From Alphaproteobacteria bacterium (GTDB lineage: Bacteria; Pseudomonadota; Alphaproteobacteria; UBA7887), in NCBI GenBank assembly GCA_965201115.1, contig OZ241745.1, forward strand, positions 2,306,308-2,370,307: a stretch of 64,000 nucleotides of DNA, written 5' to 3'. Shown in pieces: positions 27,340 through 48,071 of this stretch. How positions within the stretch are numbered: the stretch's first letter is position 1; each line of letters opens with the position of its first letter. Both the position numbers and the translations under genes were made by a program. The notes beneath the pieces are model-generated. The model ran no database searches, had not been told where the DNA came from, and saw nothing but the letters and a program-made list of their open reading frames with translations.

Positions 27340-28140
27340 TTACGGCCTGGCGAGGCCCGCCGCGCGGTCGGCGAGCCGGGCGAGCAGGCGGCCTTTCGCG
27401 GCCAGCGTGAGCGCGCCGCCGCCGGGCAGCGCCGCGCTGTCGGTCAGCACGCCCGCCTCGCGCAGGAGCAGCGCGCCGATCCCCGGCGCCGCCTTCGGCT
27501 CGGCGCCGGCGAAACCGTCGAAACGCCCGGCCGCCACCCAAGCGATGTCCAGCGCCGCGCAGCCCGTCACGCGAACGGCCGCCGGGCTCGCCGCGGCCGT
27601 CAGACGCGCCTGCGAAAGTCCCTCCGGCGGCGCCAGCGCGATGACGGCGGCGTCCAGGTCGGCGGGATCGGCGCCGCGGATGCGCCGCCGGTCGACATAG
27701 GCGCCGACGCCCGCCTCGGCCCAGTAGAGCTCGTTGCGGAAGGGGTCGAACACCACGGCCGCCGCCAGCCTGACGGCGCCGTCGCCGACCCGCGCGCGCG
27801 CGCCGAGCGCCACGGCCGCATGCGGTATCCCGTGGGCCAAATTGGCCAGCCCGTCGAGCGGCGCCACCAGCCAGGCGGGGCCCCCGGGGTCGTCGTCCTC
27901 CGGCGCAAGCACGCGGTAGTCGCCCCGCGCCCGCGCGAGCTCCCTCGCGATGCCGTCCCGCACCCGCGCGGCGGCGTGGGCGGCGAACGCGCCGGCGCCT
28001 TCGCGGCTCGCGAGGAGATTCTCGATCTCGCCGAAATCGCGCTGCAACGGGCGCGACGCGCGCACCGCCGCCCGCGCCATCAGGTTCGTGAGCGCCGACC
28101 GCGCGGCCGACTGCGCAACCGCCGGGCGCATGGCGCTCAA
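27340..28140 (-). CDS. Inositol monophosphatase family protein (SuhB/CysQ-like)
   Basis: IMPase motifs (…[17 protein letters not shown]…, …[15 protein letters not shown]…), 266 aa. Confidence 0.7.
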
Positions 28141-28703
28141 TCTTTCGCGCGTTCGGCGTAGCTGCCGTCGGAGGTGTTGACCACGACGCGCGCGCCCGTC
28201 TCGATATGCGGCGGGACCATGATGCGCTCGCCGTTCTCCAGTATCGCGGGCTTGAAACTCGAAGCCGCGGTCTGCCCCTTTACCACCGGCTCGGTCTCGG
28301 CCACCGCCATCGCAACCGTATCGGCGACGCGGACGGCGATGGCCGCGTCCTCGAACGATTCGACCTCGACTTCCATGCCTTCCTGCAGGAACGCCCGCCC
28401 GGATGCGACAAGGGCCGCGTCCACATCGATCTGTTCGTAGGTCTCGCCGTCCATCAGCGTAAGCACCTCGCCGTTGGCGTAGAGATACTGGTAGCGCTTT
28501 TGCTCAAGCCACGCGCGCTCGACCGACTCGGCGGCGCGGAAGCGCTCGTTCAGCTTCGTGCCGTCGCGCAAATGCTTCAGCTCGACCTGGTTGTACGCGC
28601 CGCCCTTGCCGGGCTGCGTGGCCTGGTTGCGCACGACGCGCCACAACGCGCCCTTGTGCTCGATAACCATGCCGGGGCGGACGGCGTTGCCGTTGATCTT
28701 CAT
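28137..28703 (-). CDS. efp: Translation elongation factor P
   Basis: [24 protein letters not shown]…QPGKGGA (conserved Lys loop KGG) ; 188 aa. Confidence 0.85.
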
Positions 28704-28830
28704 GAGCGGATTCCGGGTTTGCGCCGCGCTGCGGCCTCGCAACGCGCGATTTTACCCGCGCCGCCGCCCCAACGCAATTGCCGCGCGCGCCTCCCGCAAC
28801 TCCCGCCGAAGGCGGGGCCTGGGCGCCCGA

Positions 28831-34800: not shown

Positions 34801-35259
34801 GTCTCCCCCCTGGCTCGAGAGGGAGCCGCCGGTCATGTAGATGCCGATGTCGCCCGCCCCGGCGAGGCGGTTGACATAAAGGAGACGGGAGCTCGGCTCC
34901 CTCGTCTCGACGGAGCCGCCGCTCATGCGGATGATCGCGCTTCCGGTCCCGCGGCGCTGGATCCGCAGGCCCTCCGCCTGGTCCCCCAAGGTTACGACCC
35001 TGCCGGCCGTCATGCGAATCTCGGCGTTGCCGGAACCGTCGTGATCGACCCTGATGCCCCGGTTGTTGGCGGTGTAACCGGTAATGTTGACGCTACCCGG
35101 GTCGACGAGGATGTCGGCCGCGCTACTGCCGCCTTCGATGCAGACGATGATCCCGCCGCCGGTGTGCGGCCCGCCGCGGCACACGTTCTGCGCCGCCGCC
35201 TCCCCGGCTCCCAGCGCGAGCGCAAGCAGCAGCCCCGCCGCAAACGCCCGCGCGCTCAC
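28831..35259 (-). CDS. Giant autotransporter (type Va secretion) with glycine-rich, internally repetitive passenger and C-terminal beta-barrel ending …LTVRF
   Basis: 2142 aa; signal peptide (MSARAFAAGLLLALALGAGEAAAQ); tandem about 65-70-aa passenger repeats (…GGTVTVSG.GKLTGVEGTAAEST.GALTVTV.DEGRVEGD.ESGGTL.ATVEAGG.VTGTI…); C-terminal autotransporter barrel with terminal Phe. Confidence 0.8.
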   Translation of the reverse strand: MSARAFAAGLLLALALGAGEAAAQNVCRGGPHTGGGIIVCIEGGSSAADILVDPGSVNITGYTANNRGIRVDHDGSGNAEIRMTAGRVVTLGDQAEGLRIQRRGTGSAIIRMSGGSVETREPSSRLLYVNRLAGAGDIGIYMTGGSLSSQGGDGSGLTASIASGASGNITVSMSGGSIATQGASATGVSGAHAGTGNVTVSVSGSVSTKGASSAGVAGARSNASSTGAVAVTLSGSDTVVKTEGHSAYGVSGSERGQGDVTVTMTDGLIETTGAGAIGLRGWSGYRGAGVSNVAVVMEGGAIRTRGGSYVNIIHSHGVYAERSGGSGSASARMTGGSVETAGDNANGLHVYKSGSPGKGSVEMTGGAVSAEGLNARGLWVRHDGLGSIEMTTGAAAEVAAPFAIGMEGRLTNDDSAAGRILVTHAGAVEAPEAGVVAWARRSSGHTMGVGATTADDAARTMPMIHVTSSGTVTVGAPVREAFIRGRIAGADETLSAAEQAVLAAITDNDSAALTTALAALPADDYDAAWKAAAEDLRRKRAAATAAPTGDGPLAHAAAEEILGLSRAGVRAMALSHTAIADRVRAGDALSAAERAALTAVLSGDSSGLTTALTALPDADYDAAWKNTVRQHALTYNAGDIHVDVTGGAIDAEGNGVEALYVVPHDSNGAIAVTVSAGARVTGGAKGIYVRGAGVTAGVRNQTVTVHGAAMGGTGAGVHLFGGGAVTVGAGGEVGAASGVAILGDGGGALTATVSGTVTGDIRVDGGGSLTANVMAGGVVTGTIHDPQTALAVAGSIGRILYASGGTVTVSGSGTLTGVEGVAIESTAGALTVTVNDGIRVEGDVKSGGTLTATVEAGGVVTGTIRDPQASFTVGSGASIGRVLYASGGTVTVSGGGKLTGVEGTAAESTAGALTVTVNDEGRVEGDVESGGTLTATVEAGGVVTGTIHNPQASFTFSGSVGRVLYASGGMVTVAGGGKLTGVEGTAAESTMGALTVTVRDEGRVEGDIESGGTLMATVEAGGAVTGTIRNPAAMTVGGSVGRILYADGGTVTVAGGGAVTGVDNDGTTEAIRADAGDLDVTVMANGAVTGLVEGRGAGDLEVDVAGAVTGDIAERGAGDLEVSVAGTVTGGVVGEGAGEHTVTVASSGAVAGTVRLPAGAALTVSGDVGRVHYDNGGAVTVNASGEITGLDIDGTKEAIRGDAGNLAVTVHGMVAGNIEARGDGDLTVTVSETGTINGEIFGRGGGVHTVEIAEKARVLGTVHNPKSGTTIRGAAGRVLFDNGGALMVAATGRIAGIGGEAIRADAGALDVTVASGGMVTGRIEGRGAGAMTVNVSGAVTGAIHGKGAGKHEVTVASGGMVTGDIVDLDAGDLVASVAGRMTGDIEERGAGDLTATVAGRVTGDIEERGAGDLTATVTGTVTGGIRGMGAGSHTVAVMAGGAVTGTVHLPASAMTIAGRVGRVLYDNGGSVTVASGGSVTGVESDGTTEAIRGAAGDLTVDVAARATVTGDIRGEGDGDLKVDVSGKVEGGIFGRGGGEHDVHVKSGGSVEGLIHLAASAVTVDGSARSVLFDRGGTVAVNAGGRLSNLDGRAAVRSASGDLTVTVNGNVVGNIEDLGPGALTVAVANALTGDVIGGGGGMHRLTVASGAEFRGNVRGVEFIAVGGDAEGMLHVPAGGAVEVAAGGALVGAENAEGRRVAVLAETGALSMTVDGMVQGAVEARDAGAASTVTVGAGGEIDGRVTLAGTGSAVEVNGAVQSVDVPRGAVTVGANGRIEEPVARAERVTITAAAGESDEEAAQRVGGGRIDSSGAAVVLKREGRADSMPRITADGRIEVGPAPRHRVYEALPSVLLALNALPAHGDRFASAGAPRGAFARLDAAGGDRHPASSTAQAHHDYRRFGFEAGIEGAAGERGVFAISVHHVRGRADVDTDADTEAGGGRVEITGTGARISGAWLPAENIYVSAQAAATLYEADLDSDAALEGALARDLSGRGYAAGVEIGRRLELGRVTLTPRAGADWSMVEMSSFTDSVNERVSLDAGRRITARAGVRAESAALPGGAGAMFATLDLERELSGAMETTAADRPPFKAEAEATWARLGLGAAHEWADGRMALRANANYAAARHGNRDFTGSATLTVRF

Positions 35260-35280
35260 GCCGCGCTCCCCGGCTGCCGC

Positions 35281-35303
35281 GGGGGGGGGGGGGGGGGGGG
35301 GGG
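35281..35303. repeat. Homopolymeric G23 tract (poly-C in sense orientation) 21 nt upstream of autotransporter-1 start codon
   Basis: 23 consecutive G between promoter-like region (TTGCCG…CAAATAAACGTA) and SD GGGGAG/GTG start of the minus-strand gene. Confidence 0.9.
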
Positions 35304-35439
35304 TACGTTTATTTGCACGGCAAGCGCGGGCGCAAACCCTCGGTACGGACGGGGCATTGTCATGACGGAGCGCTCCTCGGCGGAAATGGGTACCACGCGG
35401 ATGTCGTCAATATACCACACACGGCGCGCGGGCGCAAAC

Positions 35440-35950
35440 GCCTCGGGGCGGGGGGCGATGACCGCGACTCTCCCCGGCGGGATCGCGGCGCGCGGGAACG
35501 TGCGGGCTGGAAGCCCGCGGTCCCGGGCCCCGCCTTCGGCGGGGTTGCGCCTCCCCCGGCGGCATCGCGGCGGGCGGAAACGTGCGGGCGAGACGCCCGC
35601 GCACCCAAGAAGCTCGCGCGGGCGCCGTTGCGGGGCATTGCGGGGATCCGCGGGGCTCGGGGCTGTCGAGACGCCCGCAGTCCCGGGAAGCGCGCGCCGC
35701 CCGCAAACGCGCCGCAGGCGCTGACCGCCCGGGTGCGCGGGCGTCTCGCCCGCACGTCTCGACAGTTTCGATCGTTGGCGGGAGGGGCGTAACGACTGCG
35801 CCCTTCCCGGCAATGCCGCGGCGCGCGAGAACGTGCGGGCAGGATGCCCGCGGTCCCGGGCCCCGCCTTCGGCGGGGTTGCGCCTTCCCCGGCGGGCGCC
35901 GCGCGGGTCGCCAACGTGCGGGCGAGACGCCCGCGCACCCAGGAAGCGCG
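35440..35950. repeat. Cluster of REP-like dual-hairpin intergenic repeats
   Basis: Recurring units …GGGAACGTGCGGGCAGGATGCCCGCGGTCCCGGGCCCCGCCTTCGGCGGGG… (hairpins GCGGGCA-gga-TGCCCGC and CCCCGCC-ttc-GGCGGGG) and variant GCGGGCG-aga-CGCCCGC. Confidence 0.8.
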
Positions 35951-35953
35951 CGG

Positions 35954-37069
35954 TCAGTGGCGGCGGGCGATCTCCTCCGCGCGCGCCAGCAGCGCGTCGC
36001 CGCTCGCGCACACGATCACCGCATCGCCGACCTCCTCGAGCCGGTCCGGATCGTCCACGCCCGCTACCGCCGCCGCCAGACGCGAAGCCGCCTCCGCCCC
36101 GAACTTGCGGCCCGCCTGCCGCGCCAGAAGCGCACGCTCGCGCTCAAGGCCGCGCGCCCGTTCGCGCGATGCGCCTCGCTCAAGACCACGCGCCTCGCCA
36201 AGCTCAAGCCCACGCGCCTCGCCAAGCGCTTCGCTGCGCTCCGCGCGCTCGGCAAGCAAACTGTCGAGCCGTTCCGCAAACAACGATTCCATGGCCCCCA
36301 AATCCTCCAAATCCCCGACCCGCCTCAAACGCGCAGCCAGCGCGCCGTCCGAAGCCCCGAACCGGTTCGCCTCGAGCATGTGCCGAAGCGTCGCCCCGAA
36401 CGCGCGGCGCAAACTCGCATGCTCCGGACCCGAAAGCAACCGACGCAACGCCGCGACAACCGCCGGCACAGACTCCGGATCCCCGTGCTCAAGCGCAAAA
36501 CGCGCCGACACAACGTTGCCCGCGGGCAAATCCTCCGGACGCAGACGATGAACATCGAGCAGCAGGTAACCCTGCCGGGGCTGAAAACGCTCCAGCGCAG
36601 CCCCCGCCGGCGCTATCTCGTCGCGAACCTCCCGCGACGCAGACCAACGCGCACGCCCGTTGTAAACGACAATCGGCAAGACCGGCGGAAGCGGACCCGC
36701 GCGCCGGTTCTTCCGGTCGTCCCGGCGAAGCCGCGAATACAACTGAGCCGTGTACGCATACACGCGCACCGCCATGTCCAGGTCGACCTGCGACTGAAAC
36801 TCCAGCATGACCAGCAGATACACCCAGCCGGTCGTGCCGTCGGCGGCGCGGTAGCGCAGCCGCCACACGCGGTCGCCCCGCGTCTGCCGCAGATCCTCGT
36901 CCACGTACTCCGCCGGCGCCGGTTCGAGGCTGGCGAGGTCGAGGCGGGAGACATCGAACTCCGGGCCCAGCGCCTGCCGCATGAACCCCCCGAGCAGGTC
37001 GGCGACCGCCCGCTCATGCTCGAAAAACAGTTTAAAGCTTGCATCGTGTATCTCGCGCATGGCGGTCAT
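35954..37069 (-). CDS. Rpn/YhgA-like recombination-promoting nuclease / putative transposase (PDDEXK_7 with C-terminal DUF4351-like tail)
   Basis: 371 aa; N-terminal …DASFKLFFEHERAVADLLGGF… typical of Rpn family; D/E-rich core (…VWRLRYRAADGTTGWVYLLVMLEFQSQVD…). Confidence 0.65.
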   Translation of the reverse strand: MTAMREIHDASFKLFFEHERAVADLLGGFMRQALGPEFDVSRLDLASLEPAPAEYVDEDLRQTRGDRVWRLRYRAADGTTGWVYLLVMLEFQSQVDLDMAVRVYAYTAQLYSRLRRDDRKNRRAGPLPPVLPIVVYNGRARWSASREVRDEIAPAGAALERFQPRQGYLLLDVHRLRPEDLPAGNVVSARFALEHGDPESVPAVVAALRRLLSGPEHASLRRAFGATLRHMLEANRFGASDGALAARLRRVGDLEDLGAMESLFAERLDSLLAERAERSEALGEARGLELGEARGLERGASRERARGLERERALLARQAGRKFGAEAASRLAAAVAGVDDPDRLEEVGDAVIVCASGDALLARAEEIARRH

Positions 37070-37079
37070 TATAGCACAT

Positions 37080-37290
37080 GGCGCCGAACGAAGCGCCCCC
37101 CGAGGATCGCCGGCATCGCGCGGGGCGCCGACGTGCGGGGCATTGCGGGGCTCCGCGGGGCTCGCGCGGCTGCGGGGCTCCGCGGCTTGGCGCTCGCGCC
37201 CTCCTGCCGACGCCGCGGCGGGCGGGAACGCGCGGGCAGGATGCCCGCGGTCCCGGGCCCCGCCTTCGGCGGGGTTGCGGCTTCTTCCGC
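37080..37290. repeat. REP-like dual-hairpin repeat copy between Rpn gene and autotransporter-2
   Basis: Same GCGGGCAGGATGCCCGC / CCCCGCCTTCGGCGGGG unit as elsewhere. Confidence 0.8.
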
Positions 37291-37292
37291 GG

Positions 37293-40200
37293 TCAGAAGC
37301 GCACGGTGAGTGCGGCGCTGCCGCTGAAGTCGCGGTTGCCGTGGCGGGCGGCGGCGTAGGCGGCGTTGGCGCGGAGGGCTATGCGGCCGTCGGCCCATTC
37401 GTGGGCGGCGCCGAGGCCGAGGCGCGCCCATGTCGCTTCCGCTTCGGTCTCGAAGGGGCGGTCTGCCGCTGTTGTTTCCATCGCGCCGGACAGTTCGCGC
37501 TCCAGGTCCAGCGTTGCGAACATGGCGCCGGCGCCGCCGGGGAGGGCGTCGGACTCGGCGCGCACGCCGGCGCGGGCCGTTATGCGCCGGCCCGCGTCAA
37601 GCGATACGCGCTCGTTCACGGAGTCCGTGAACGACGACATCTCCACCATCGACCAATCGGCGCCCGCGCGCGGGGTCAGCGTCACGCGGCCCAAGTCGAG
37701 GCGCCGCCCGATCTCCACGCCGGCGGCGTAGCCGCGGCCCGAAAGATCCCGCGCAAGGGCGCCCTCGAGCGCCACGTCCGAATCGAGGTCGGTCTCGTAA
37801 AGCGTCGCCGACGCCTGACCGCTCACATAGACGTTCTCCGCCGGCAGCCACGCGCCCGACAGGCGGGCGCCCGTGCCGGTTATCTCGACACGGCCGCCGC
37901 CCGCCTCCGCATCCATCTCCGCGTCTGTCTCCACATCGGCGCGCCCGCGCACATGATGAACGGAGACCGCGAACACGCCGCGTTCGCCCGCCGCGCCCTC
38001 GAACCCCGCCTCGAACCCGAAGCGGCGGTAGTCGTGATGCGCCTGCGCGGTCGAGGAGGCCGGATGGCGGTCGCCGCCGCCAGCGTCGAGGTGCGCGAAC
38101 GCGCCGCGCGGCGCGCCCGCGGCGGCGAAGCGGTCGCCGTGGGCGGGCAGCGCGTTCAGCGCCAGCAGCACCGAAGGCAGTGCCTCGTACACGCGGTGCC
38201 GCGCCGCCGGCCCGACCTCGATACGGCCATCGGCGGTTATCCGAACCTGCGAATCGACACGGCCCTCGCGCTTGAGGGTAATCGTGGCGCCTGCGGCGTC
38301 GATGCGACCGCCGCCGACGCGCAGCGCCGCCTCCTCGTCGGTTTCGCCCGCGGCCGCACGTATCGTTACCGTCTCGGCGCCGATGACGGGGTCCTCGATG
38401 CGCCCGTTCTCGCCCACCGTCACCGCGCCGCGGGGCACATCGACGCTCTGCGCCGCGCCATCGACCGTGATCTTGCTGTCGGCGCCCGCCAGCGTGACCT
38501 TGCCGTCGATTTCGCCGCCGGCGCCGACCTTCACGGTCGAAGCCGCGCCGGCGTCGCGCGCCTCGACGGCGCCCTGCACCGCGCCATCGACTGTCATGTC
38601 CAGGGCGCCGGTTTCGGCGACGACCGCCACGCGGCGGCCTTGCGCGTCCTCCGCGCCCACGAGCATGCCGTCCGCGGGGACCGTCACCTCGTTGCCCGCG
38701 GGCACATCCAGCGTTCCCTCCGCGCGCCCGGCCACGAGTATGGACTCCACGCCCTCGACATTTCCCTTGAAGACGCCGCCGGGCTGCACCGTCAGCCGAT
38801 GCATGCCTCCGCCGCCGCCGATGACGTCGCCCGTCAGCTCGTTCGCAACCGTAACCGCGAGGTTTCCGGGGCCGGTGTCGGAGACGCTGCCCATGACGAC
38901 GCCGTTCACCGTCACCGTCAGGTCATCGGCCGCGCTGTAAACCGCGCGGCCGTCGAGGCCCGTTATCCGTCCTTCGGAACCGACCTCGACCGCGCCGCCG
39001 CGATCGAACCGGATGCTCCGTGCGGAGCCGTCGACCGTCACCGTGCTGGCGGCCAAGTGGATGAGACCCTCGACCGAGCCGCCGGATTTCACATGAACGT
39101 CGTGCTCGCCGCCGCCGAGGCCGAATATCCGGCCCTCGACCTTGCCGCTCACATCCACCTTCAAATCGCCATCGCCCGCGCCGCGAATGTCTCCCGTTAC
39201 GGTCCCCATCGCCGCCACGTCCACCGTCAGATCGCCCGCCGCGCTGCGGATCGCCTCCCGCACCCCATCGGTCTCGACGCCGGCAATGGTCCCCGACGCC
39301 GCGATGGTTACCGAACCGCCATTGTCGTACAGCACGCGCGCCGCGCGGCCCGCGACCGTCGCCGCGTGCGAACCCGCGCCGACGCCGCGGATGGCGCCCG
39401 CAACCGAACCCCCGGACGCAACCGTAACCCGGTGCATGCCCGCGCCCATGCCGCGGATATCGCCGGCAACCGAGCCCGCAACCGTTACCGTCAGGTCACC
39501 CGCGCCGCGCTCCTCGACGGCGCCCGCAACCGAACCGCCGGACGCAATCGCGACCCGATGCGCGCCGGCGCCCATGCCGCGGATATCGCCGGAAACCGCG
39601 CCCGCAACCGTTACCGTCAGGTCGCCCGCGCCGCGCTCCTCGATCGAACCCGTCACCGAACCCGCAACCGTCGCGACCAGGTCGCCCGCGTCCATATCGA
39701 CAATGTTACCCGTCACCGAGCCGCCGGAGGCGACCGTAACCTCGTGCCTGCCGGCGCCCTTGCCGAGGATGGCGCCCGTTACCTTGCCGCCCGCGTTCAC
39801 GGTCATGCCGCCCGCGCCGCGCTCCTCGATGACGCCCGCGACGGCGCCGCCGGACGCGATCGCCACCGTCAGGTCTCCCGCGTCGGAACGGATCGCTTCC
39901 CGGACGCCCTCTATCTCGAGACCGGCAATCCGGCCCCGCGCGCCGACCTTCACGGCGCCGCCACGGTCCAGCAACACGCGCCCGGCCGCGCCGTGCTCCA
40001 CATCCACCTCGCTCGCCGCCAGGCGCACCGTTCCCGTGACCATGCCGCCGCCGCGCACCGCGACCGTGTGTTCGCCGGCGCCGAGACCCAGTATGTCGCC
40101 CTCGACCGTGCCGGTTACCGTCGCCGCCAGAGCGCCGCCGCGGCTCTCCACATTTCCGGTCGCCTCGCCGGCGACCGTAACCTCCAGGTCGCCCGCGGCG

Positions 40201-42950
40201 CTGCGGATCGCCTCGCCGCCGATGCCCGAGACGCGCCCGCTCGCGGCGATGGTCAGCGCGCCGCCGTTGTCGAACAGAACGCGCCCGACGGCGCCGCTTA
40301 TGGTTGTCCCGCGCTTCGGGTTATGCACCGTGCCTGCAACCGTCGCCTTCTCCGCGATTTCGATGGTGTGCGTCCCGCCGCCGCGGCCGAATATCTCCCC
40401 CATAATCGTCCCGGTTTCCGACACCGTGACCGTCAGATCGCCGTCGCCGCGCGCTTCGATATTGCCCGTCACCTCGCCGTGAACGGTGACCGTCAAATCC
40501 CCCGCGTCGCCGCGGATCGCCTCCCGCGCGCCCTCGATTTCGACGCCCGTAATCTCGCCGTTCGCATTGACCGTGACGGCGCCGCCGTTGTCGTAATAAA
40601 TGCGTCCGACCTTGCCCGCGACGGTCATCGCGCCTGTCGGCAAACGCACCGTCCCCGTGACGGCGCCCGCGGATTCTATCGCGACCGTGTGCTCGCCGGC
40701 GTCCTCGCCGCGAATATCGCCGGCGACCGTGTTCGACACCGTGACGTCCAGGTTGCCGGCGCCGCGTTCGGCAATGTCGCCCGTTACCTCGCCGGAAACC
40801 GCGACTTTCAGATTGCCGGCGCCGCGGCCCTCGATGTTTCCCGCAACCTCGCCGTCGGCGGCCACCGTGACGGTCAAATCCCCCGCGCCGGCGCGGATCG
40901 CTTCCCGCGTTCCCTCGATTTCGACGCCCGTAATCCGGCCGCCGCCGGCGACCGTTACCGTTCCGCCGTTGTCGTAGAGTATGCGCCCGATGCGCACCTC
41001 GTCCGCAACCGCGAACGGGCTCCGGGGGTTGTGTATCGTGCCTGTAACCGCGCCGCCGGACATGATATTCGCCGTCAGCGCGCCGGCGTCGACGATGCGG
41101 ATATCGCCTTCGATCCTGCCTCCGCTCTCCACCGTGACGGCGAGATCGGTTTCCGGCGCTTCGTAGTCTTCGCCGGGTTCCGCGGGCGGCGCGTATCCGG
41201 CCTCGATCGCCAAGCCCGAGCCTGCCTTGACGACGCCCGTGCGGCCGACCGTTACGGCGCCGCCGCGCCGCATCCGGATGGCGGCGTCCCGCGCGCTCGC
41301 GCCGATCGTCTCGACGGTTCCGTTCACGATTACGCGGTCCTCCACGCCGGCGCCGGCGGGGGGCCCAGTTATCACGATGGCGTGCATTACGGGTTCGAGG
41401 AGGTTCGCGGTCGTGGTCTCGCCGTCGGCGCCGGGCCGCTCCGCCTCGACGGTCCGCCACCCATAGACATGCGTCGGGTATATGTACCGGTTTCCGTTGG
41501 CGCCGAGCTGTTCTTGCGTAATCGCGCCGTTTTCGTAGTCCTCTTCCGTCAGCGCCTGGGCGCGCACGGTTGCGCCCTCGGCCACCCGGACGGTAAACGC
41601 GGCGCCGGCGGTTCGCGGCAGGGCGTAGATGGCGGTACCGCCGCGGGTCTCCACCGATCCGCCCGTGACGTCGACGATGTGCCCTTCGATCGTGTCGGTC
41701 GTTTCGGGATCGTCGGTCAGATCGTTCGCCGCGTTGAGTACCTGCGCGTCGATGGCGAGGCCCTGCACGGTCGCTATCGTGCCCGACGACACGACGCGGA
41801 CGCGGCCCAAGCCGGAGTTCCGGGCGTTGATGCCCGAGCCCTGCCGGGTGCTCCAGGTCGGGCTGCGCCGGACCGCGGCCCGGATCGTGCCGCCGGCGTT
41901 GACGATGACGTCGCCCGACTGATAGGTGTCGCCGTCGGCGTCGGGGGCCGAGTCCCTGGCGAAATTGCTGCCGGGAAGAAGCCACGCCCAGATGGCCCTG
42001 CCGCCCTCGGCGGAGACGTCGAGCAGCGATCCCGGTCTGAGGTCGATGACGATATCGCCGTCCTCGCCATTCTGCTCGACATACATGCCGTTGCCGCCCG
42101 CCGACCCCTCGACGTTCCGGACGATGCTGTTAGCTCCCATTACGATATTGACGTCGAAATTCTTTCTTCCCTCGGAGATGGGGACGTAATCGGTCAGATG
42201 GACCCATATCGCGGAGCCGTTGCCGGCCCAATGGCCGATGCTCCCGCCGAACCGGGGGTTGAGATCGACGTTGCCGTTAAGCGTGAGCGCTATGGGCGCC
42301 CACCCGCTGCCGCTCATATGGATGCCGCTGTGGGAGTTCGTGGCCTCCCTCGCGGACGAGTAGTACAGCTCGGTACCGTCGGATGGGCGATTCGGGTCGT
42401 CCGCCGGCCAATACGACGGCGTCCGGCTGAACTCGATCGTGGCGCCCTCCTCGACGATCAAGGTCGGGCCGCCGTGCGTCTTCAACTTGAGAGCGCCGTC
42501 GACCCAGAAGCCGCGCATGTCGGCGAGGCCGGTCGCCGCGATCCTGACGCCCGTCTTGACGGTGATTTCCACATTGTTCTCACGGGTGTTTTCGCCCACT
42601 ATCTGATCGGCGGGATCCGTGTAGTAGGTTCCCCGGCGATGGTCCCAGTACCTCACGCCGTTCCGCGTGCGCCCGCCTCCGTACTGGTCCCAGTGGACGG
42701 CTCCCCAGTCGGCCTCGCCCGCCGGCTTGTTCGCCCTCGCGGCGCAGACCGCGGCGGTTGTGTACTGCTGGTTATGCGGGCTTCGCAGGCCATAGCCCGC
42801 GCGCACGTCCGGGGCTGTCATGGCGCATATTACGGGGGCCTGAAACGGCGCCAGCTGCGCCTGCGCCGGGGCGGCGAACATCGCCAGGCCGACCGCGCAG
42901 AAGACGGCGGCGGCGCGCATCGCGGTTCCGGGGAAGCTCCGTGCGATCAT
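37293..42950 (-). CDS. Second giant autotransporter paralog, with C-terminal beta-barrel about 90% identical to the first
   Basis: Start taken at ATG 42950 (MIARSFPGTAMRAAAVFCAVGLAMFAAPAQA signal peptide; SD GAGGA); alternative in-frame ATGs 42962/43049/42920; same passenger repeat family and near-identical last about 350 aa. Confidence 0.8.
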   Translation of the reverse strand: MIARSFPGTAMRAAAVFCAVGLAMFAAPAQAQLAPFQAPVICAMTAPDVRAGYGLRSPHNQQYTTAAVCAARANKPAGEADWGAVHWDQYGGGRTRNGVRYWDHRRGTYYTDPADQIVGENTRENNVEITVKTGVRIAATGLADMRGFWVDGALKLKTHGGPTLIVEEGATIEFSRTPSYWPADDPNRPSDGTELYYSSAREATNSHSGIHMSGSGWAPIALTLNGNVDLNPRFGGSIGHWAGNGSAIWVHLTDYVPISEGRKNFDVNIVMGANSIVRNVEGSAGGNGMYVEQNGEDGDIVIDLRPGSLLDVSAEGGRAIWAWLLPGSNFARDSAPDADGDTYQSGDVIVNAGGTIRAAVRRSPTWSTRQGSGINARNSGLGRVRVVSSGTIATVQGLAIDAQVLNAANDLTDDPETTDTIEGHIVDVTGGSVETRGGTAIYALPRTAGAAFTVRVAEGATVRAQALTEEDYENGAITQEQLGANGNRYIYPTHVYGWRTVEAERPGADGETTTANLLEPVMHAIVITGPPAGAGVEDRVIVNGTVETIGASARDAAIRMRRGGAVTVGRTGVVKAGSGLAIEAGYAPPAEPGEDYEAPETDLAVTVESGGRIEGDIRIVDAGALTANIMSGGAVTGTIHNPRSPFAVADEVRIGRILYDNGGTVTVAGGGRITGVEIEGTREAIRAGAGDLTVTVAADGEVAGNIEGRGAGNLKVAVSGEVTGDIAERGAGNLDVTVSNTVAGDIRGEDAGEHTVAIESAGAVTGTVRLPTGAMTVAGKVGRIYYDNGGAVTVNANGEITGVEIEGAREAIRGDAGDLTVTVHGEVTGNIEARGDGDLTVTVSETGTIMGEIFGRGGGTHTIEIAEKATVAGTVHNPKRGTTISGAVGRVLFDNGGALTIAASGRVSGIGGEAIRSAAGDLEVTVAGEATGNVESRGGALAATVTGTVEGDILGLGAGEHTVAVRGGGMVTGTVRLAASEVDVEHGAAGRVLLDRGGAVKVGARGRIAGLEIEGVREAIRSDAGDLTVAIASGGAVAGVIEERGAGGMTVNAGGKVTGAILGKGAGRHEVTVASGGSVTGNIVDMDAGDLVATVAGSVTGSIEERGAGDLTVTVAGAVSGDIRGMGAGAHRVAIASGGSVAGAVEERGAGDLTVTVAGSVAGDIRGMGAGMHRVTVASGGSVAGAIRGVGAGSHAATVAGRAARVLYDNGGSVTIAASGTIAGVETDGVREAIRSAAGDLTVDVAAMGTVTGDIRGAGDGDLKVDVSGKVEGRIFGLGGGEHDVHVKSGGSVEGLIHLAASTVTVDGSARSIRFDRGGAVEVGSEGRITGLDGRAVYSAADDLTVTVNGVVMGSVSDTGPGNLAVTVANELTGDVIGGGGGMHRLTVQPGGVFKGNVEGVESILVAGRAEGTLDVPAGNEVTVPADGMLVGAEDAQGRRVAVVAETGALDMTVDGAVQGAVEARDAGAASTVKVGAGGEIDGKVTLAGADSKITVDGAAQSVDVPRGAVTVGENGRIEDPVIGAETVTIRAAAGETDEEAALRVGGGRIDAAGATITLKREGRVDSQVRITADGRIEVGPAARHRVYEALPSVLLALNALPAHGDRFAAAGAPRGAFAHLDAGGGDRHPASSTAQAHHDYRRFGFEAGFEGAAGERGVFAVSVHHVRGRADVETDAEMDAEAGGGRVEITGTGARLSGAWLPAENVYVSGQASATLYETDLDSDVALEGALARDLSGRGYAAGVEIGRRLDLGRVTLTPRAGADWSMVEMSSFTDSVNERVSLDAGRRITARAGVRAESDALPGGAGAMFATLDLERELSGAMETTAADRPFETEAEATWARLGLGAAHEWADGRIALRANAAYAAARHGNRDFSGSAALTVRF

Positions 42951-42988
42951 GGTTGTCCTCATGGGGTCGGGGCGCGCCGGCCTGCCGC

Positions 42989-43005
42989 GGGGGGGGGGGG
43001 GGGGG
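42989..43005. repeat. Homopolymeric G17 tract (poly-C in sense) upstream of autotransporter-2, with flanks conserved relative to tract 1 (CAAAT(A/T)AACGTA-Cn-GCGGCAG)
   Basis: 17 consecutive G; flanking motif shared with 35281-35303 tract. Confidence 0.9.
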
Positions 43006-43119
43006 TACGTTAATTTGCCCGCCGCCGCCGCGGGCAGGCGCAAACCCATTGCGTGGAACGGGTATCGTCATGACGGGGCCCTCCTGGGCGGGAACGGACA
43101 ACGCGCGGATGCCGCGAGC

Positions 43120-43860
43120 GGCGGGATGGTACGCCATGCCGCGCGCGGGGGGCAACCGTTTTGTGCGGGGGGACTCGCGGCGGCTTCCTGGGCGCGCGGG
43201 CGGGGCGGCGGGGATCCGCGGGGCTCTGCGGGGCTCGCGCGGCCTGGCGCTCGCGTTTTCCTGCCGACGCCGCGGTGGGCGGGGACGTGCGGGCAGGATG
43301 CCCGCGGTCCCGGGCCCCGCCTTCGGCGGGGTTGCGCGGTGGCGGGAAACGGCGCGCCCTCCCCGCCGACGCCGCGGCGGGTGGGAACGTGCGGGCGGGG
43401 ACGCCCGCGCACCCAGGAAGTTCGCGCCTTCGGCGCGGGTGGGGCGGCGGGGATCCGCGGGGCTCTGCGGGGCTCGCGCGGTTGCGGGGCTCTGCGGCCT
43501 GGCGCTCGCGGCTTCCTGCCGACGCTGCGGTGGGCGGGAATGTGCGGGCAGGATGCCCGCGGTCCCGGGCCCCGCCTTCGGCGGGGTTGCGCGGTGGCGG
43601 GCAACGGCGCGCCCTCCCCGCCGACGCCGCGGCGGGCGGGAACGTGCGGGCGGGGACGCCCGCGCACCCAGGAAGTTCGCGCCTTCGGCGCGGGTGGGGC
43701 GGCGGGGATCCGCGGGGCTCTGCGGGGCTCGCGCGGTTGCGGAGCTCTCGGCCTGGCGCTCGCGGCTTCCTGCCGACGCTGCGGTGGGCGGGAACGTGCG
43801 GGCAGGATGCCCGCGGTCCCGGGCCCCGCCTTCGGCGGGGGTGCGAATCGGCGGGCGGTC
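43120..43860. repeat. REP-like repeat array including about 2.6 tandem copies of an about 240-bp composite unit (about 43210-43850)
   Basis: Unit GGATCCGCGGGGCTCTGCGGGGCTCGCGCGG…GTGCGGGCAGGATGCCCGCGGTCCCGGGCCCCGCCTTCGGCGGGG…GTGCGGGCGGGGACGCCCGCGCACCCAGGAAGTTCGCGCCTTCGGCGCGGG recurs with period about 240 bp. Confidence 0.8.
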
Positions 43861-45138
43861 TCATTTTATGTAGAGGCGCACCTCGGGGGCGGCGGCTTCG
43901 GGGGCGGTGGCGAAGGCCAGATCGATCCGTTCGGCCGGCATGTTCATGGCAAGCAGCGAGGCGAGGACGCGCTCGGCGTTGCGGCCCGCGGCCTCCGCCG
44001 CGCCGCCGGGCGGGGACGCCGCCAATATCTCGAAGCGCGCGCCCGGACGCCGCGCCAGCGCCGCGCTCACCGCCTCGTAAAGCGCGTCTTCGTAATCCGG
44101 CGCCCCGTTGTCGAAACGGATGGTGAGCAGCGCGGGCGCGCGCCCGGACGCGGCCGGGGGCGGCGGCGGCGCGGGAACCGGCGGCGCGACCGCGGCGAGA
44201 GCCGGCGGCGGCGCCGCGGCGTCCGGTTCGGGCGCCGCATCGGTCATGCGCGCGGTCGCGCCGTCGCGGAAACCCGCTTGCGCGCCGTCCACATAGGCGG
44301 CGTAGCGGCCGAGAATCTCGCTCACATCCGCCAGCAGGCGGTCGTTCTCGCCGACCACGCGGGTTACGCCGCTTTCCACGCCCGAGATCTCGCCGCCATC
44401 GACGCCGAGCGCGTCGCGCACCGACCGCGCCGCGCGGGTCGACTCGGACAAATAGGCCGCCATGCCGCGATTTTCGGCCACGCGCGCGCTCAACTCGCGC
44501 AGGCGCGTCGAATAGGCGGAGGCGACCGCGCGCAGCGCGCTTTGCGCCGATCTCCACTGGCTGATGAGCAGCGGGTCGTCGGGCGGCGCGCCCTCGCCCC
44601 AGCGCTGGTCGACCGCTTCCGCCGCCGCGGCGTACAGCGTGGCCGACTCGGCCACGCCGTCGGCCAGCGCTCGCAGTTCCGCGCGCTGGCTGTCGATCAG
44701 CCCCGACAACCCCGCCAGTTCGTTGGAGAGCGCGGCCGCGTGCAGGCGCATGAACGCCGCGGGCGCGCCGGCGGCCACGCTCCTCTCCCCGAGCGCGGGC
44801 GGCGCGTCCGGCGCCGGCCCCGGCGCCGATGGCGGCTGGAGCGGCGGCGCTTCCGCCGCGGGCGGGGGGGGCGGGGGCGGCGCGAGCGGCGGGGCTTCCG
44901 CTACAAGCGCCGGCGGCGGCGCGAGGGCGGGCGGCGGGAGCGGCTCCGGCTCGGGCCGCGCCTCGGGCTCCGGCGGCGGCAAGGGCGCCGCGACCGGCGC
45001 CGCCGCGACCGGCGGAAGCGCATCCGGCGGCGCGAGCAGATCGGTCGCGTCGGGCGTCAGCCCGAAGCCGTCGAACGAACAGGCGCCGAGTATGCCGGCC
45101 GCCAGGCCCAGCGCGGCCCGCCGCAGAACCTTCGTCAT
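43861..45138 (-). CDS. Proline-rich lipoprotein of unknown function
   Basis: ATG 45138; lipobox (…LAAGILGAC-S); long PPxxAPP-rich spacer then alpha-helical core; 425 aa. Confidence 0.55.
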   Translation of the reverse strand: MTKVLRRAALGLAAGILGACSFDGFGLTPDATDLLAPPDALPPVAAAPVAAPLPPPEPEARPEPEPLPPPALAPPPALVAEAPPLAPPPPPPPAAEAPPLQPPSAPGPAPDAPPALGERSVAAGAPAAFMRLHAAALSNELAGLSGLIDSQRAELRALADGVAESATLYAAAAEAVDQRWGEGAPPDDPLLISQWRSAQSALRAVASAYSTRLRELSARVAENRGMAAYLSESTRAARSVRDALGVDGGEISGVESGVTRVVGENDRLLADVSEILGRYAAYVDGAQAGFRDGATARMTDAAPEPDAAAPPPALAAVAPPVPAPPPPPAASGRAPALLTIRFDNGAPDYEDALYEAVSAALARRPGARFEILAASPPGGAAEAAGRNAERVLASLLAMNMPAERIDLAFATAPEAAAPEVRLYIK

Positions 45139-45149
45139 GAACGCACCCC

Positions 45150-45615
45150 TCGGCCCGCCGCGCCGCGCGCGGGCAAAACCCCCACCGCCGGTCCGCCGGT
45201 CACGGGACCGAGTATATACCGGCGCGCGGGGATCCGCAACGCGCCTTCCGGGCGCGCAGGCGCGGCGCGGAAACGTGCGGGCGGGGACGGGGCGGGCGCC
45301 CAGGAAGCGCGCCGCGCACTCCCCGCAAACGCCGCGCTGCTTGCCGACGTGCGGGCAGGATGCCCGCGGTCCCGGGCCCCGCCTTCGGCGGGGCAAGCAT
45401 TTCGGTACAGACACCGAGGGCGCGCCGCCATGCGCTTCCTCGCTAACGCCGCGCCGCACGGGAACGTGCGGGCGAGACGCCCGGGCGCCCAGGAAGCGCG
45501 CCGCGCACTCCCCGCAAACGCCGCGCTGCTTGCCGACGTGCGGACAGGATGCCCGCGGTCCCGGGCCCCGCCTTCGGCGGGGCAAGCATTTCGGTACAGA
45601 CACCGAGGGCGCGGT
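45150..45615. repeat. Four tandem/nearby copies of REP-like dual-hairpin repeat (two subtypes alternating)
   Basis: …GCGGGCAGGATGCCCGCGGTCCCGGGCCCCGCCTTCGGCGGGGCAAGCATTTCGGTACAGACAC… twice, interleaved with …GTGCGGGCGGGGACGGGGCGGGCGCCCAGGAAGCGCGCCGCGCACTCCCCGCAAACGCCGCG… units. Confidence 0.8.
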
Positions 45616-46292
45616 CAAGAGAACGTCAGCGCCATCCACCGCACTTCGCCCACCGTTTCGGCGTCGTCGGGCCAGGGAACGGCGGGGTATTCGGGCGCCG
45701 GGTTGTCGCTTACCAGCCGCCAGCGCCGGTCCGCGCCCTGCCCCGCGCGCTTGATCACCAGCCCGTCGCCGGTGCGCAGCACATACAGCTTGCCCGCGCG
45801 GCGGCGGCGCGCGGCGCGGTTGACCAGCACGCGCGACCCGTCGGGCAGCGTGGGCTCCATCGACGCGCCGCGCACGCGCATGACCATGCACTGCGTGGGG
45901 TCGAGGCCGTTGGCGTCGAGCCAGTCGCGGCGGAACGACAGCGCGCTGACGGCGCGTTCATCGTCGGCCTCGGCGCCGCCGCCCGCCGCGGCGGCCACTT
46001 CGACCACCTCCACCTGCCGCGTCGCGGCGGGCGCCGCGTTCCCGCCGCCGCGGGAGTCAGGGGCCGGCGCGGGCGCGCCCGCGCGCGGCGCGATGCGCAG
46101 TTCCAGCCCCAGCGCGCCGCAGATTTCCGCCGCCCGATCGACCGAGGGGGCCTGTTTGCGTTTGGGGTCGAGCAGGCCGCGCAGCGTCCACGGTCGCAGG
46201 CCGCGCGCGCGTTCGAACCGCCGCGCGCCCATCGCGGCGCCGTCCAGCGCCTCGCGCACCGCGTCGCGGATTCGCTCGCTGGGGGGGCGCAC
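45615..46292 (-). CDS. LexA/CI-like transcriptional repressor (HTH + S24 peptidase domain)
   Basis: C-terminal S24 signature …GASMEPTLPDGSRVLV…GKLYVLR.GDGLVIKR (Ser/Lys dyad context); N-terminal HTH-like. Confidence 0.65.
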   Translation of the reverse strand: MRPPSERIRDAVREALDGAAMGARRFERARGLRPWTLRGLLDPKRKQAPSVDRAAEICGALGLELRIAPRAGAPAPAPDSRGGGNAAPAATRQVEVVEVAAAAGGGAEADDERAVSALSFRRDWLDANGLDPTQCMVMRVRGASMEPTLPDGSRVLVNRAARRRRAGKLYVLRTGDGLVIKRAGQGADRRWRLVSDNPAPEYPAVPWPDDAETVGEVRWMALTFS

Positions 46293-46305: not shown

Positions 46306-47742
46306 TCAGGGCGCCTCGGTGCCGCCGACCGTGAGCCCGTCGACGAGCAGGGTCGGCTGCCCCACGCCCACGGGCACGCCCTGGCCGTTCTTGCCGCAGG
46401 TTCCGATGCCGGGGTCGAGGCGCATGTCGGCGCCGATCGCGCGCACGTTTTTCAGCACTTCGTGGCCTGTCCCGATCAGCGTCGCGCCCTTGACCGGCGC
46501 GCCCACGCGCCCGTCCTCGATGCGGTAGGCCTCGGAGGCGGAAAACACGAACTTGCCGGATGTGATGTCCACCTGCCCGCCGCCGAAATTCACCGCGTAC
46601 AGGCCGTTGGGGACGCTCCGGATAATGTCCTCGGGGTCCTCCGCGCCCGCCTGCATGATTGTGTTGCGCATGCGCGGCATGGGTTGGTGCGCGAAACTCT
46701 GGCGGCGCCCGTTGCCGGTGGAGGCGGCGCCGGTCAGCCGCGCGTTGAGACGGTCGTGCATGTAGCCCACCAGTATCCCGTCGTCGATCAGCGTCGTGGA
46801 CTGCGTGGGCGTGCCTTCGTCATCGACGGTGAGCGAGCCGCGGCGGTCGGGCAGCGTGCCGTCGTCGATCACCGTCACCCCGGGGGCGGCGACGCGTTCG
46901 CCCATCAGGTCCGAGAACACGCTGGTCTTCTTGCGGTTGAAATCGCCCTCCAGCCCGTGGCCGATCGCCTCGTGGAGCAGGATGCCGGGCCAGCCGGGGC
47001 CGAGAACGACCTGCATTTCGCCCGCCGGGGCGGCCTTCGCCTCGAGCAGCGTCAGCGCCTGGCGCAGCGCCTCGTCCACGTGGCCGCGCCAGCGCGCCGG
47101 CGCCAGCAGCGGCGCATAGCCGTGGCGCCCGCCCGAACCGTAGCTGCCGGTTTCGCGCACGCCGCCTTCCTCGACGACCACCGAGACATTGAGACGCAGC
47201 AGCGGGCGGATGTCGTCGGCGCGCGCGCCGTCGGCGCGGCGGATCGAGACCGCCTGCCAGCTGCCGGTCAGCGACGCCATGACCTGCCGCACGCGCGTAT
47301 CGGCGGCGCGCGCATGGGCGTCGATCTCCTGCAGCAGATGCACCTTGCTGGCGAACGGGACCGCGTCGAGCGGGTTGCCGGGCGCGTAGAGCTGGCGGTT
47401 GGTCTTGCCCGGCGCGGCGCCGGGCGCGCCCGCGCGGCCCGAGCGCACCGCGCGCACGGTCTCGGCCGCGCGCCGGATCGCCGCCTCGCTCAGCTCGGAG
47501 GCGTGCGCATAGCCCGTCGCCTCGCCCGACACCGCGCGCAGGCCGAACCCCTGCGCGGTGTCGAAACTCGCCGCCTTCAGCTTGCCGTCCTCGAACGAAA
47601 ACGATTCCGATTGCCGGTATTCGAGGAAGAGCTCGCCGTCGTCGGCGCCGCGCAGCGCCTCGCCGACCAGCGAATCGACGCGCCCGGGGTCCATCCCGGT
47701 GCGCGCAAAAAACAGTTCGTCCAACGCCGCCGTGTCCGTCAT
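46306..47742 (-). CDS. tldD: Metalloprotease TldD
   Basis: ATG 47742 (MTDTAALDELFFAR…); conserved HEAIGHGLEGDF motif; 478 aa. Confidence 0.85.
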   Translation of the reverse strand: MTDTAALDELFFARTGMDPGRVDSLVGEALRGADDGELFLEYRQSESFSFEDGKLKAASFDTAQGFGLRAVSGEATGYAHASELSEAAIRRAAETVRAVRSGRAGAPGAAPGKTNRQLYAPGNPLDAVPFASKVHLLQEIDAHARAADTRVRQVMASLTGSWQAVSIRRADGARADDIRPLLRLNVSVVVEEGGVRETGSYGSGGRHGYAPLLAPARWRGHVDEALRQALTLLEAKAAPAGEMQVVLGPGWPGILLHEAIGHGLEGDFNRKKTSVFSDLMGERVAAPGVTVIDDGTLPDRRGSLTVDDEGTPTQSTTLIDDGILVGYMHDRLNARLTGAASTGNGRRQSFAHQPMPRMRNTIMQAGAEDPEDIIRSVPNGLYAVNFGGGQVDITSGKFVFSASEAYRIEDGRVGAPVKGATLIGTGHEVLKNVRAIGADMRLDPGIGTCGKNGQGVPVGVGQPTLLVDGLTVGGTEAP

Positions 47743-47829
47743 CGCCTGTCCTCCCGTGCCCGAAGCGCCCCAACGTAATACGGCGCGCGCAACGTTCCAA
47801 CCCGCGCGTCCGCCGCTGAGAGTCTGTAC

Positions 47830-48000
47830 CGGAATTCGGCAGCTATCGGTTCGGCAGGGACCGGTGGGCGTCTTGTCCGCTTGCGCTTCCCTGCCGACAT
47901 CGCGCCTTGCGGGAACGTGCGGGCAGGATGCCCGCGGTCCCGGGCCCCGCCTTCGGCGGGGCAAGCATTTCGGTACAGACACTCACGGCGCGCCGGCGCC
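47830..48000. repeat. REP-like dual-hairpin repeat copy upstream of Sel1 lipoprotein gene
   Basis: …GGGAACGTGCGGGCAGGATGCCCGCGGTCCCGGGCCCCGCCTTCGGCGGGGCAAGCATTTCGGTACAGACACTCA…. Confidence 0.8.
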
Positions 48001-48049: not shown

Positions 48050-48071
48050 CCCCCCCCCCCCCCCCCCCCCC
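48050..48071. repeat. Homopolymeric C22 tract 48 nt upstream of Sel1-repeat lipoprotein start
   Basis: 22 consecutive C on the coding strand between REP element and RBS (GGAG) of gene at 48120. Confidence 0.9.

Follow-up and report, generated by a model that had tools for sequence, protein, structure and literature searches.

A poly-C tract in the 5′ leader of a large alphaproteobacterial autotransporter gene as a candidate contingency locus

The window analysed here is a stretch of 64,000 nucleotides (nt) from an alphaproteobacterium of the UBA7887 lineage (contig OZ241745.1, positions 2,306,308 to 2,370,307 of the forward strand), with a GC content of 70.4%. On its minus strand it encodes two paralogous autotransporters, AT1 and AT2, each with a long run of cytosines shortly ahead of its signal-peptide start; the run ahead of AT2 (tract 2, C17) is the subject of this work. 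Judging from how long the tract is, where it lies and the presence of repeats at the same place throughout the family, we consider the locus a probable contingency locus (probability about 0.8), in which a slippage-prone repeat would make expression of a surface protein stochastic and heritable. The odds are roughly even that the underlying mechanism is translational, acting through the reading frame of a leader open reading frame (ORF) that runs through the tract.

Position and anatomy of the tract

On the forward strand tract 2 is a G17 run at 42989-43005, which in the sense orientation is C17 with the flanks CAAATTAACGTA-C17-GCGGCAGGC; read along the minus strand over 42700-43400, the region is ...GGGCAAATTAACGTA-C17-GCGGCAGGCCGGCGCGCCCCGACCCCATGAGGACAACCATGATCGCACGG.... 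Exactly 38 nt (42988-42951) separate the run from ATG 42950. A preliminary description of the window had given the coordinates of the run, its flanks and this gap, and all of them were recovered on re-reading both strands. It had also called the start of AT2 ambiguous, rightly, as ATG 42962 lies upstream and in frame; at C17, the AT2 frame is also open through the run as far as a further ATG at 43049, which has no Shine-Dalgarno (SD) sequence and is not conserved in the other copy. That other copy, tract 1, lies ahead of AT1 as G23 on the forward strand at 35281-35303, with the sense-strand flanks CAAATAAACGTA-C23-GCGGCAGCC. The principal features are the following.

37293-42950, minus strand: AT2, 1885 amino acids (aa) from ATG 42950, with a PF03797 beta-domain at residues 1625-1863.
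42956-42960, minus strand: SD sequence of AT2, GAGGA, 5 nt 5′ of ATG 42950.
42989-43005, minus strand: tract 2, a homopolymer, C17 in the sense orientation; the leader ORF reads the run as Pro codons.
28831-35259, minus strand: AT1, 2142 aa, GTG start.
35281-35303, minus strand: tract 1, C23 in the sense orientation; GTG 35259 begins 21 nt later.

Tract 2 is not attributable to chance. The window contains 51 matches to G10 or C10, against 0.5 expected from shuffled sequence, and 80 related alphaproteobacterial loci (1.38 Mb, 63% GC), which had been fetched for another purpose, hold five G/C runs of 8-9 nt and none of 10 nt or more. At C17 and C23 the two tracts exceed the length at which simple sequence repeats of this kind are regarded as hypermutable (a G/C run of about 7-9 nt or more), with the reservation that the assembled length of a homopolymer of 17-23 nt may be wrong by at least one base. 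Their placement is likewise that of a contingency locus, both tracts lying within an SD-led ORF, 38 nt (tract 2) and 21 nt (tract 1) 5′ of a signal-peptide start.

The downstream genes are classical (type Va) autotransporters, combining a C-terminal PF03797 barrel with a signal peptide and a long repetitive passenger. AT2 matches PF03797 at 3.8e-27, and the C-terminal 340 aa alone give 9e-28 for AT1 and 8.5e-29 for AT2. The signal peptide of AT2, MIARSFPGTAMRAAAVFCAVGLAMFAAPAQA, has by inspection the charged n-region, hydrophobic core and AQA-Q junction of a Sec substrate, and the passengers of the autotransporters contain repeats with periods of 60, 126 and 243 nt. The two proteins share 67% identity across their C-terminal ~1300 aa, and their N-terminal passengers are unrelated. 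At full length AT1 has no Pfam match, despite PF03797 in its C-terminal 340 aa; the miss presumably stems from filtering of the long repetitive passenger, which calls for caution in automated annotation.

A discrete leader module shared by both genes

A block of 126 nt that is bounded at its 3′ side by the tract matches the corresponding region of tract 1 at 75% identity (blastn). Aligned as whole upstream regions the two copies have a mean identity of 77%, with the flank similarity reaching ~110 nt farther upstream, and by eye nine more bases past the tract, GCGGCAGSC, also agree. Beyond this point a blastn comparison of the whole loci found no DNA similarity between AT1 and AT2 in the signal-peptide region or the initial 1.8-3 kb of the coding sequence; it returns, at 76-85%, in the repeat and C-terminal part. 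Because the leader block is discrete and ends just past the tract, it behaves as a module and not as the edge of one continuous duplication, and the shared flanks are best described as a separate 5′ cassette that appears to have been joined to differing N-terminal passengers.

The preliminary description had proposed a duplicated, tract-containing regulatory module driving both paralogues, a view that would have been weakened had the flanks been merely part of a larger recent duplication. They are not, given that similarity breaks off for 1.8-3 kb, and the duplicated module stands in the form of the discrete block. Driving of the promoter type, through tract-dependent spacing, was not borne out, as only an SD sequence and a start codon follow the tract.

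42989-43114, minus strand: leader homology block, matched with 35287-35406 of tract 1.
43080-43085, minus strand: SD sequence of leader ORF 2, AGGAGG, 8 nt 5′ of ATG 43071; GAGGAG in the tract-1 copy.
42772-43071, minus strand: leader ORF 2 at C17, MTIPVPRNGFAPARGGGGQINV-P(n)-..., 99 codons, running out of frame over the SD, start and signal-peptide codons of AT2.
35256-35363, minus strand: leader ORF 1 at C23, MTMPRPYRGFAPALAVQINV-P8-RQPGSAA*; its TGA overlaps the AT1 start (GTGA).
43126-43131, minus strand: weak -10 candidate TACCAT, found by eye and aligned with TGgTATATT (35409-35414) of the tract-1 copy.

Within this module both copies conserve the arrangement AGGAG(G)-N8/9-ATGAC, at ATG 43071 for tract 2 and ATG 35363 for tract 1. 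The 6-nt length difference between the two leader ORFs leaves the frame intact. There are six isolated single-base differences between them; every one falls at a third codon position and five are synonymous. A further three codons, adjacent to one another, differ at more than one position. In the flank motif, the A/T difference is one of these synonymous changes (Ile, ATA/ATT). Small as the sample is, the third-position pattern points to a leader that is translated.

Very little separates the tracts from the coding sequences. After tract 1 there are only 21 nt, GCGGCAGCC-GGGGAG-CGCGGC-GTG, and after tract 2 only 38 nt, ending GAGGA-CAACC-ATG; each segment offers a good SD sequence at a spacing of 5-6 nt and a start codon, from which a typical signal peptide is read. 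No -10-like hexamer was seen downstream of either tract, and strict sigma-70 and terminator scans around both leaders gave no match. Since only an SD sequence and a start codon lie 3′ of it, the tract must be transcribed. A candidate weak promoter, picked out by eye, may lie ~45-55 nt 5′ of the leader ATGs (TTGCGC-17-TGgTATATT for tract 1, TTGCCC-18-TACCAT for tract 2); if the -10 candidate at 43126-43131 is real, the leader ORF and the tract would both be transcribed.

Reading-frame outcomes and proposed mechanism

We propose that C17 is a slipped-strand-prone homopolymer located not in a promoter but in the transcribed and translated 5′ leader of AT2. The SD-preceded ATG 43071 would open a short ORF for a conserved peptide of 20-22 aa, to which the tract adds a poly-proline stretch. 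Since nothing but a second SD sequence and the signal-peptide start comes after the tract, the fate of ribosomes that initiate upstream would depend on its length modulo 3. The outcomes were computed for n ± 4 around each tract length.

Tract 2, n = 13, 16, 19: leader fused to AT2.
Tract 2, n = 15, 18, 21: leader stops at a TGA overlapping the start (ATGA at ATG 42962).
Tract 2, n = 14, 17, 20: out-of-frame overrun of 98-100 codons across the SD, start and signal-peptide codons of AT2.
Tract 1, n = 21, 24, 27: leader fused to AT1.
Tract 1, n = 20, 23, 26: leader stops with a GTGA overlap at GTG 35259.
Tract 1, n = 19, 22, 25: out-of-frame overrun of about 79 codons.

At n = 16 or 19 ribosomes would continue in frame and yield a pre-protein with an N-terminal extension. 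At n = 15 or 18 they would terminate at the TGA overlapping ATG 42962, and such a stop-start overlap should favour re-initiation. At n = 17 a 99-codon overrun across the authentic SD, start and signal-peptide codons would leave AT2 lowered or silenced, which makes the overrun state the natural candidate for low or off expression. The fused state appears compatible with function, given that fused forms persist in relatives whose run is shortened or interrupted. The paralogue would pass through the same three outcomes in another register. At the sequenced lengths, the overrun state applies to AT2 (C17) and the stop-start overlap to AT1 (C23), and both are one slip away from fusion. Independent slippage in each copy is plausible, and copies that switch separately would produce stochastic, heritable and reversible variation of two large surface proteins. 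As to a simple intragenic ON/OFF arrangement, in which a full-length product comes from a single length class, the upstream SD-ATG ORF fuses to the autotransporter at n = 1 mod 3 and homologues with an in-frame fusion exist; the conserved SD and start past the tract could offer a way around the frame. The anatomy of the locus, the effect of each length on the frame, the conserved leader and the family-wide repeats are established here; that slippage occurs, that the upstream ATG is used and that the frames correspond to expression levels in this way is what we infer.

A more elaborate version may be put forward tentatively, at fairly low odds: a dedicated leader peptide would have the tract as its variable core, translation of the downstream autotransporter would be switched among three states (fused, stop-start coupled, overrun) by how long the tract is, and the upstream SD and ATG, the homopolymer and the internal SD and start would all be kept by selection throughout this family of environmental Alphaproteobacteria. 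That core would be poly-Pro here and poly-Gly in a sister clade. Output might also depend on EF-P to assist translation through the poly-proline run.

Several points weigh against translational control. The conserved SD and start that follow the tract could let part of the expression escape its control, making the switch leaky. The leader ORFs of two homologous loci introduced below, L088 and L089, differ mostly non-synonymously ([1,4,1]), so that the peptide is not constrained everywhere. Open ORFs arise by chance at 70% GC and signal-peptide sequences often have an A right after the start codon, which makes the xTGA overlaps weak evidence; the 'coupled' overlap frame, present at 5 of 9 loci, is not significantly enriched, and its over-representation was dropped as an argument. 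RNA polymerase may slip on runs of this length, blurring the frames at the RNA level, and an assembly error in tract length would alter the state assigned to each copy.

A structural role of the run, with poly-C sequestering the G-rich SD or serving as a length sensor, was also considered and rejected. RNAfold predictions for both leaders over n = 8-26 gave an energy constant within about 1 kcal/mol and unchanged SD accessibility, and left the tract mostly unpaired (0.5-0.8).

Repeats at the same position in homologous loci

When the N-terminal 600 aa of AT2 served as query, only three proteins were retrieved (31-43% identity), and a profile built from them yielded 15 clear homologues, all in ENA metagenome assemblies. 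Nine AT2-type loci were fetched for comparison of their 5′ ends.

L083: C24, 15 nt before ATG, then GCCGGGGA and an SD sequence as in tract 1; the leader ORF reads into the tract.
L002: C14; GGAGGAG-N7-ATG-MWKKT- and then the tract, with a separate SD and ATG 89 nt past the tract.
L087: C8; an SD-GTG ORF whose stop TGA overlaps the ATG.
L001: G47 at 5953-5999, ending 1 nt before the signal-peptide start; SD-ATG ORF MNLFPRS..., its ATG 163 nt upstream of the start.
L088: G32 at 1968-1999, ending 1 nt before the start; MNLFPRS-type ORF 143 nt upstream, ATGA overlap stop.
L086: G16 at 2005-2020, ending 1 nt before the start; its own SD-ATG ORF (MVSAINY...) 110 nt upstream, GTGA overlap stop.
L089: G11 at 1989-1999, ending 1 nt before the start; MNLFPRS-type ORF (MNLLTRS...) 122 nt upstream, GTGA overlap stop.
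L084: a short uninterrupted G run at the homologous position and a perfect 13-nt array of 27.3 copies (2624-2978); leader fused in frame.
L085: a perfect 13-nt array of 12.5 copies (2813-2974); no leader ORF.

All nine homologues thus carry a repeat at the same 5′ position, and the repeats are of three types, poly-C, poly-G and a 13-nt array, the C8 of L087 being the weakest case. Poly-G takes the place of poly-C in a sister clade (L001, L088, L086, L089). The unit of the arrays in L084 and L085 is GGGGCCTCTTCAC; all units are 100% identical, and the arrays sit just 5′ of the SD sequence, where they replace the long homopolymer. Among related metagenome-assembled genomes (MAGs) the orthologous tracts vary widely, from G47 through G32, G16 and G11 to a stable short in-frame run in the L084 lineage. 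There the run is uninterrupted, and each of the seven clustered assemblies shows an in-frame fusion of the leader ORF. In L086, L087, L088 and L089, as at tract 1 of the window, the leader ORF ends on a TGA that overlaps the start.

The AT1-type relatives carry comparable leaders at the protein level. P0036 begins MTMPRPYRGFAPVLAVQINV-P6-REGRG-MSARAL..., in frame and with 19 of 20 residues identical to leader 1 of the window; unlike this near-identical leader, its N-terminal 600 aa are only 55% identical. In-frame poly-Pro N-terminal extensions also occur in P0037 (MERLTVHL-P10-HGRLRERV-MSTRTL), P0040, P0020 and P0018, and P0021 has the P0037 leader with an interrupted run (DPPFSP) in which the frame is still kept. 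Every N-terminally extended AT1-type homologue contains the internal-start ATG or GTG, and in most of them a GAG codon lies 2-4 codons 5′ of it, which on this protein-level reading is compatible with an SD sequence. The family as a whole has thus kept the upstream start, the tract and the internal start. Gene neighbourhoods of the relatives look environmental, with Sox, Dsr, PQQ and cobalamin genes.

Further copies were sought in several collections. Exact-product look-ups of the window proteins for other strains gave no match, and the motif GCAAATWAACGTA-C8 had none in 185,579 species genomes or in JGI metagenomes. A protein-profile scan of metagenomes for other copies produced 484 pattern matches, of which none was confirmed, and megablast of 28000-49500 against plasmids recovered tldD alone, at about 72% identity. 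A phmmer search with the 34-aa leader peptide against 1.84 billion representatives returned no match, the query being too short and of low complexity.

Alternative explanations

Control that depends on the length of the tract and not on its frame is unlikely. Poly-C in the mRNA leader would here alter transcript level or stability and give graded, 'rheostat' expression; it could do so by offering Rho a place to load or a G-rich small RNA (sRNA) a target, or by altering leader geometry. The tract does lie in a transcribed leader, 21-38 nt 5′ of the start, and its predicted largely unpaired state is what a Rho or sRNA site would require. The 13-nt arrays of L084 and L085 cannot work through frame, as their unit length is not divisible by 3 and they lie upstream of the SD sequence. 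There are also precedents in the G(n) tract of UspA1 (PMC7302503) and in tlpB/RepG (PMC8295292). This explanation leaves the conserved SD-ATG, the frame-preserving indel and the leader peptide unaccounted for; predicted folding energy and SD accessibility do not depend on n, and a gathering-threshold Rfam scan of the window found no family and no sRNA.

It is improbable, though not far-fetched for this lineage, that the long C/G runs are a neutral by-product of lineage-wide run expansion with no regulatory role at this locus. Runs do grow where nothing is regulated, as the terminal repeats of a CRISPR array in the window show (C9, C12, C14 and C17 in place of the normal C7), and another intergenic region holds a further C22 (48050-48071). 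Against neutral expansion, the repeat recurs at the same position from the signal-peptide start in all nine homologous loci, from at least four metagenome assemblies and with differing repeat types, and long runs are absent both from the 5-6 kb coding regions of the two genes and from the 1.38 Mb of related DNA. Such a positional bias is what selection for switchable expression would predict.

The explanation closest to the preliminary description, a tract that sets the distance between promoter elements and thereby tunes transcription initiation, is very improbable. The AT-richest patch (CAAATTAACGTA) does lie directly 5′ of the tract and holds a TAnnnT-like hexamer, TAACGT, and the C22 run just mentioned and the C10 of L083, with TTGACG after it, are more promoter-like. 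On the 3′ side of the tract there is just GC-rich sequence, the SD and the start codon, with no -10-like hexamer and negative sigma-70 scans; the 6-nt indel between the copies would disrupt a shared upstream -35/-10 spacing, and in the poly-G homologues the tract ends 1 nt before the start codon. The class of promoter spacers known from fim, porA and opc, in which the tract sits between the -35 element or an activator site and the -10, does not fit this geometry.

A sequencing or assembly artefact, with the tract spurious or grossly mis-sized, has next to no standing: long homopolymers are error-prone and some related loci come from contigs with 3-5x coverage, yet tracts occur at the homologous position in independent assemblies, including contigs at 18-52x coverage, they are internal to contigs and not at their ends, and called proteins of other assemblies hold in-frame Pro or Gly runs.

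Comparison with known phase-variable systems

Homopolymer phase variation is textbook knowledge in host-adapted Neisseria, Haemophilus, Campylobacter, Helicobacter, Bordetella and Moraxella. In Bordetella fim2 and fim3 a promoter poly-C of about 13-15 nt acts as a promoter spacer and controls a surface structure, a geometry unlike that found here, and Neisseria porA and opc likewise have promoter-spacer homopolymers. In H. influenzae lic1, CAAT tetranucleotide repeats inside the ORF select among start codons and give several expression levels.

Closest by function are NalP and MspA (AusI) of Neisseria meningitidis, in which a strain-variable poly-C of 6-15 nt within the autotransporter coding sequence sets expression by its length modulo 3 (PMC3723659). 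As in the window, poly-C lies in the 5′ part of a classical autotransporter gene; theirs is contained in one ORF, is not followed by a second SD or start and works as ON/OFF, whereas here a run of 17-23 nt lies in a leader ORF or extension ahead of an internal SD, start and signal peptide, so that three states would be possible. The closest parallel by position is uspA1 of Moraxella catarrhalis, with a G(n) of 6-12 nt located 29 bp upstream of the ORF and an mRNA change of about 20-fold (PMC7302503). It shares a homopolymer about 30 nt 5′ of the start of an autotransporter-class adhesin, and expression from its tract is graded and heritable. It differs in being a trimeric autotransporter with an effect at the mRNA level and no described upstream ORF, whereas here an SD-ATG ORF reads through the tract.

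By architecture the nearest system is hmw1A/hmw2A of Haemophilus influenzae, in which 7-bp tandem repeats lie between two promoters and more copies mean less expression (PMC8262952). There too, two paralogous loci encode large adhesins with variable N-terminal binding regions and have their own copies of a 5′ module that carries the repeat, and the system provides the nearest parallel to the perfect 13-nt arrays of L084 and L085; its products are two-partner-secretion adhesins, and the tracts of the window are homopolymers, not multi-base units. In Helicobacter pylori the sRNA RepG recognises a G-repeat in the tlpB leader and represses or activates according to repeat length (PMC8295292). There too a homopolymer occupies the mRNA leader, its length variation giving gradual control, but tlpB belongs to another gene class and needs a trans-acting sRNA, none of which was identified in the window.

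What sets the present family apart from these systems is the tract length (17-47 nt), the placement in an SD-led leader with another conserved start behind it, the exchange of one repeat type for another among members of a single family, and the host lineage. The general logic of contingency loci is known; here it would operate in a 70% GC alphaproteobacterium and in relatives known only from metagenome assemblies, and an autotransporter family in which three repeat types are interchangeable at a single position would bring contingency loci into a lineage and a lifestyle new to them. If translational control through the leader ORF is correct, the locus would be a tractable case of a repeat that works through an upstream ORF and a stop-start overlap, and not through a promoter or a simple frameshift. 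On the practical side, gene callers will shift starts with tract length and report 'extensions' or split genes.

Neighbouring features

The CRISPR array occupies 2780-6610 and has 55 regular repeats, GCCG-C7-GCGCGGGGGGCGCGGATTGAAAC. Expansion of its C run is confined to the last repeats, at the apparent trailer end: C14 at 6005-6018, C9 at 6289-6297, C12 at 6499-6510 and, in a degenerate terminal repeat, C17 at 6592-6608. The C22 run at 48050-48071 (tract 3), on the forward strand, is intergenic; a PmbA/TldD-like gene on the minus strand and a Sel1-repeat gene on the plus strand, starting at ATG 48120, flank it. The run lies 48 nt 5′ of ATG 48120, no start codon reads into it, and its flanks are unlike those of tracts 1 and 2. 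The PmbA/TldD protein (46306-47982) has a best match of 75% aa identity among the 185,579 species genomes, the top matches being all from Alphaproteobacteria and mainly from MAGs, which marks the source as an alphaproteobacterium with no representative in that collection.

Between AT1 and AT2 lies a YhgA/Rpn-like 'Transposase_31' ORF (35954-37069; PF04754, 9.9e-24), which could be a player in autotransporter rearrangement. Directly 5′ of the tract-2 leader, a 255-bp unit is repeated 2.4 times in tandem at 96% identity (43227-43845). It belongs to a set of multi-copy, GC-rich intergenic repeats that contain hairpins; related copies occur at 35484-35946, 5′ of the tract-1 leader, and at 37212-37292, 3′ of AT2, and a 189-bp repeat is present in 1.9 copies at 45260-45613. 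Farther upstream of the AT2 leader are a minus-strand ORF of 676 aa (43861-45891), Gly/Ala-rich, laden with repeats and with no Pfam match, and a Peptidase_S24-like ORF (45615-46292).

Directly 3′ of AT1 are efp and an inositol-monophosphatase gene (27340-28742), and the same pair adjoins the autotransporter homologue in L089 (154-1562). The presence of efp beside a gene with a poly-proline leader is intriguing, yet it may reflect plain synteny.

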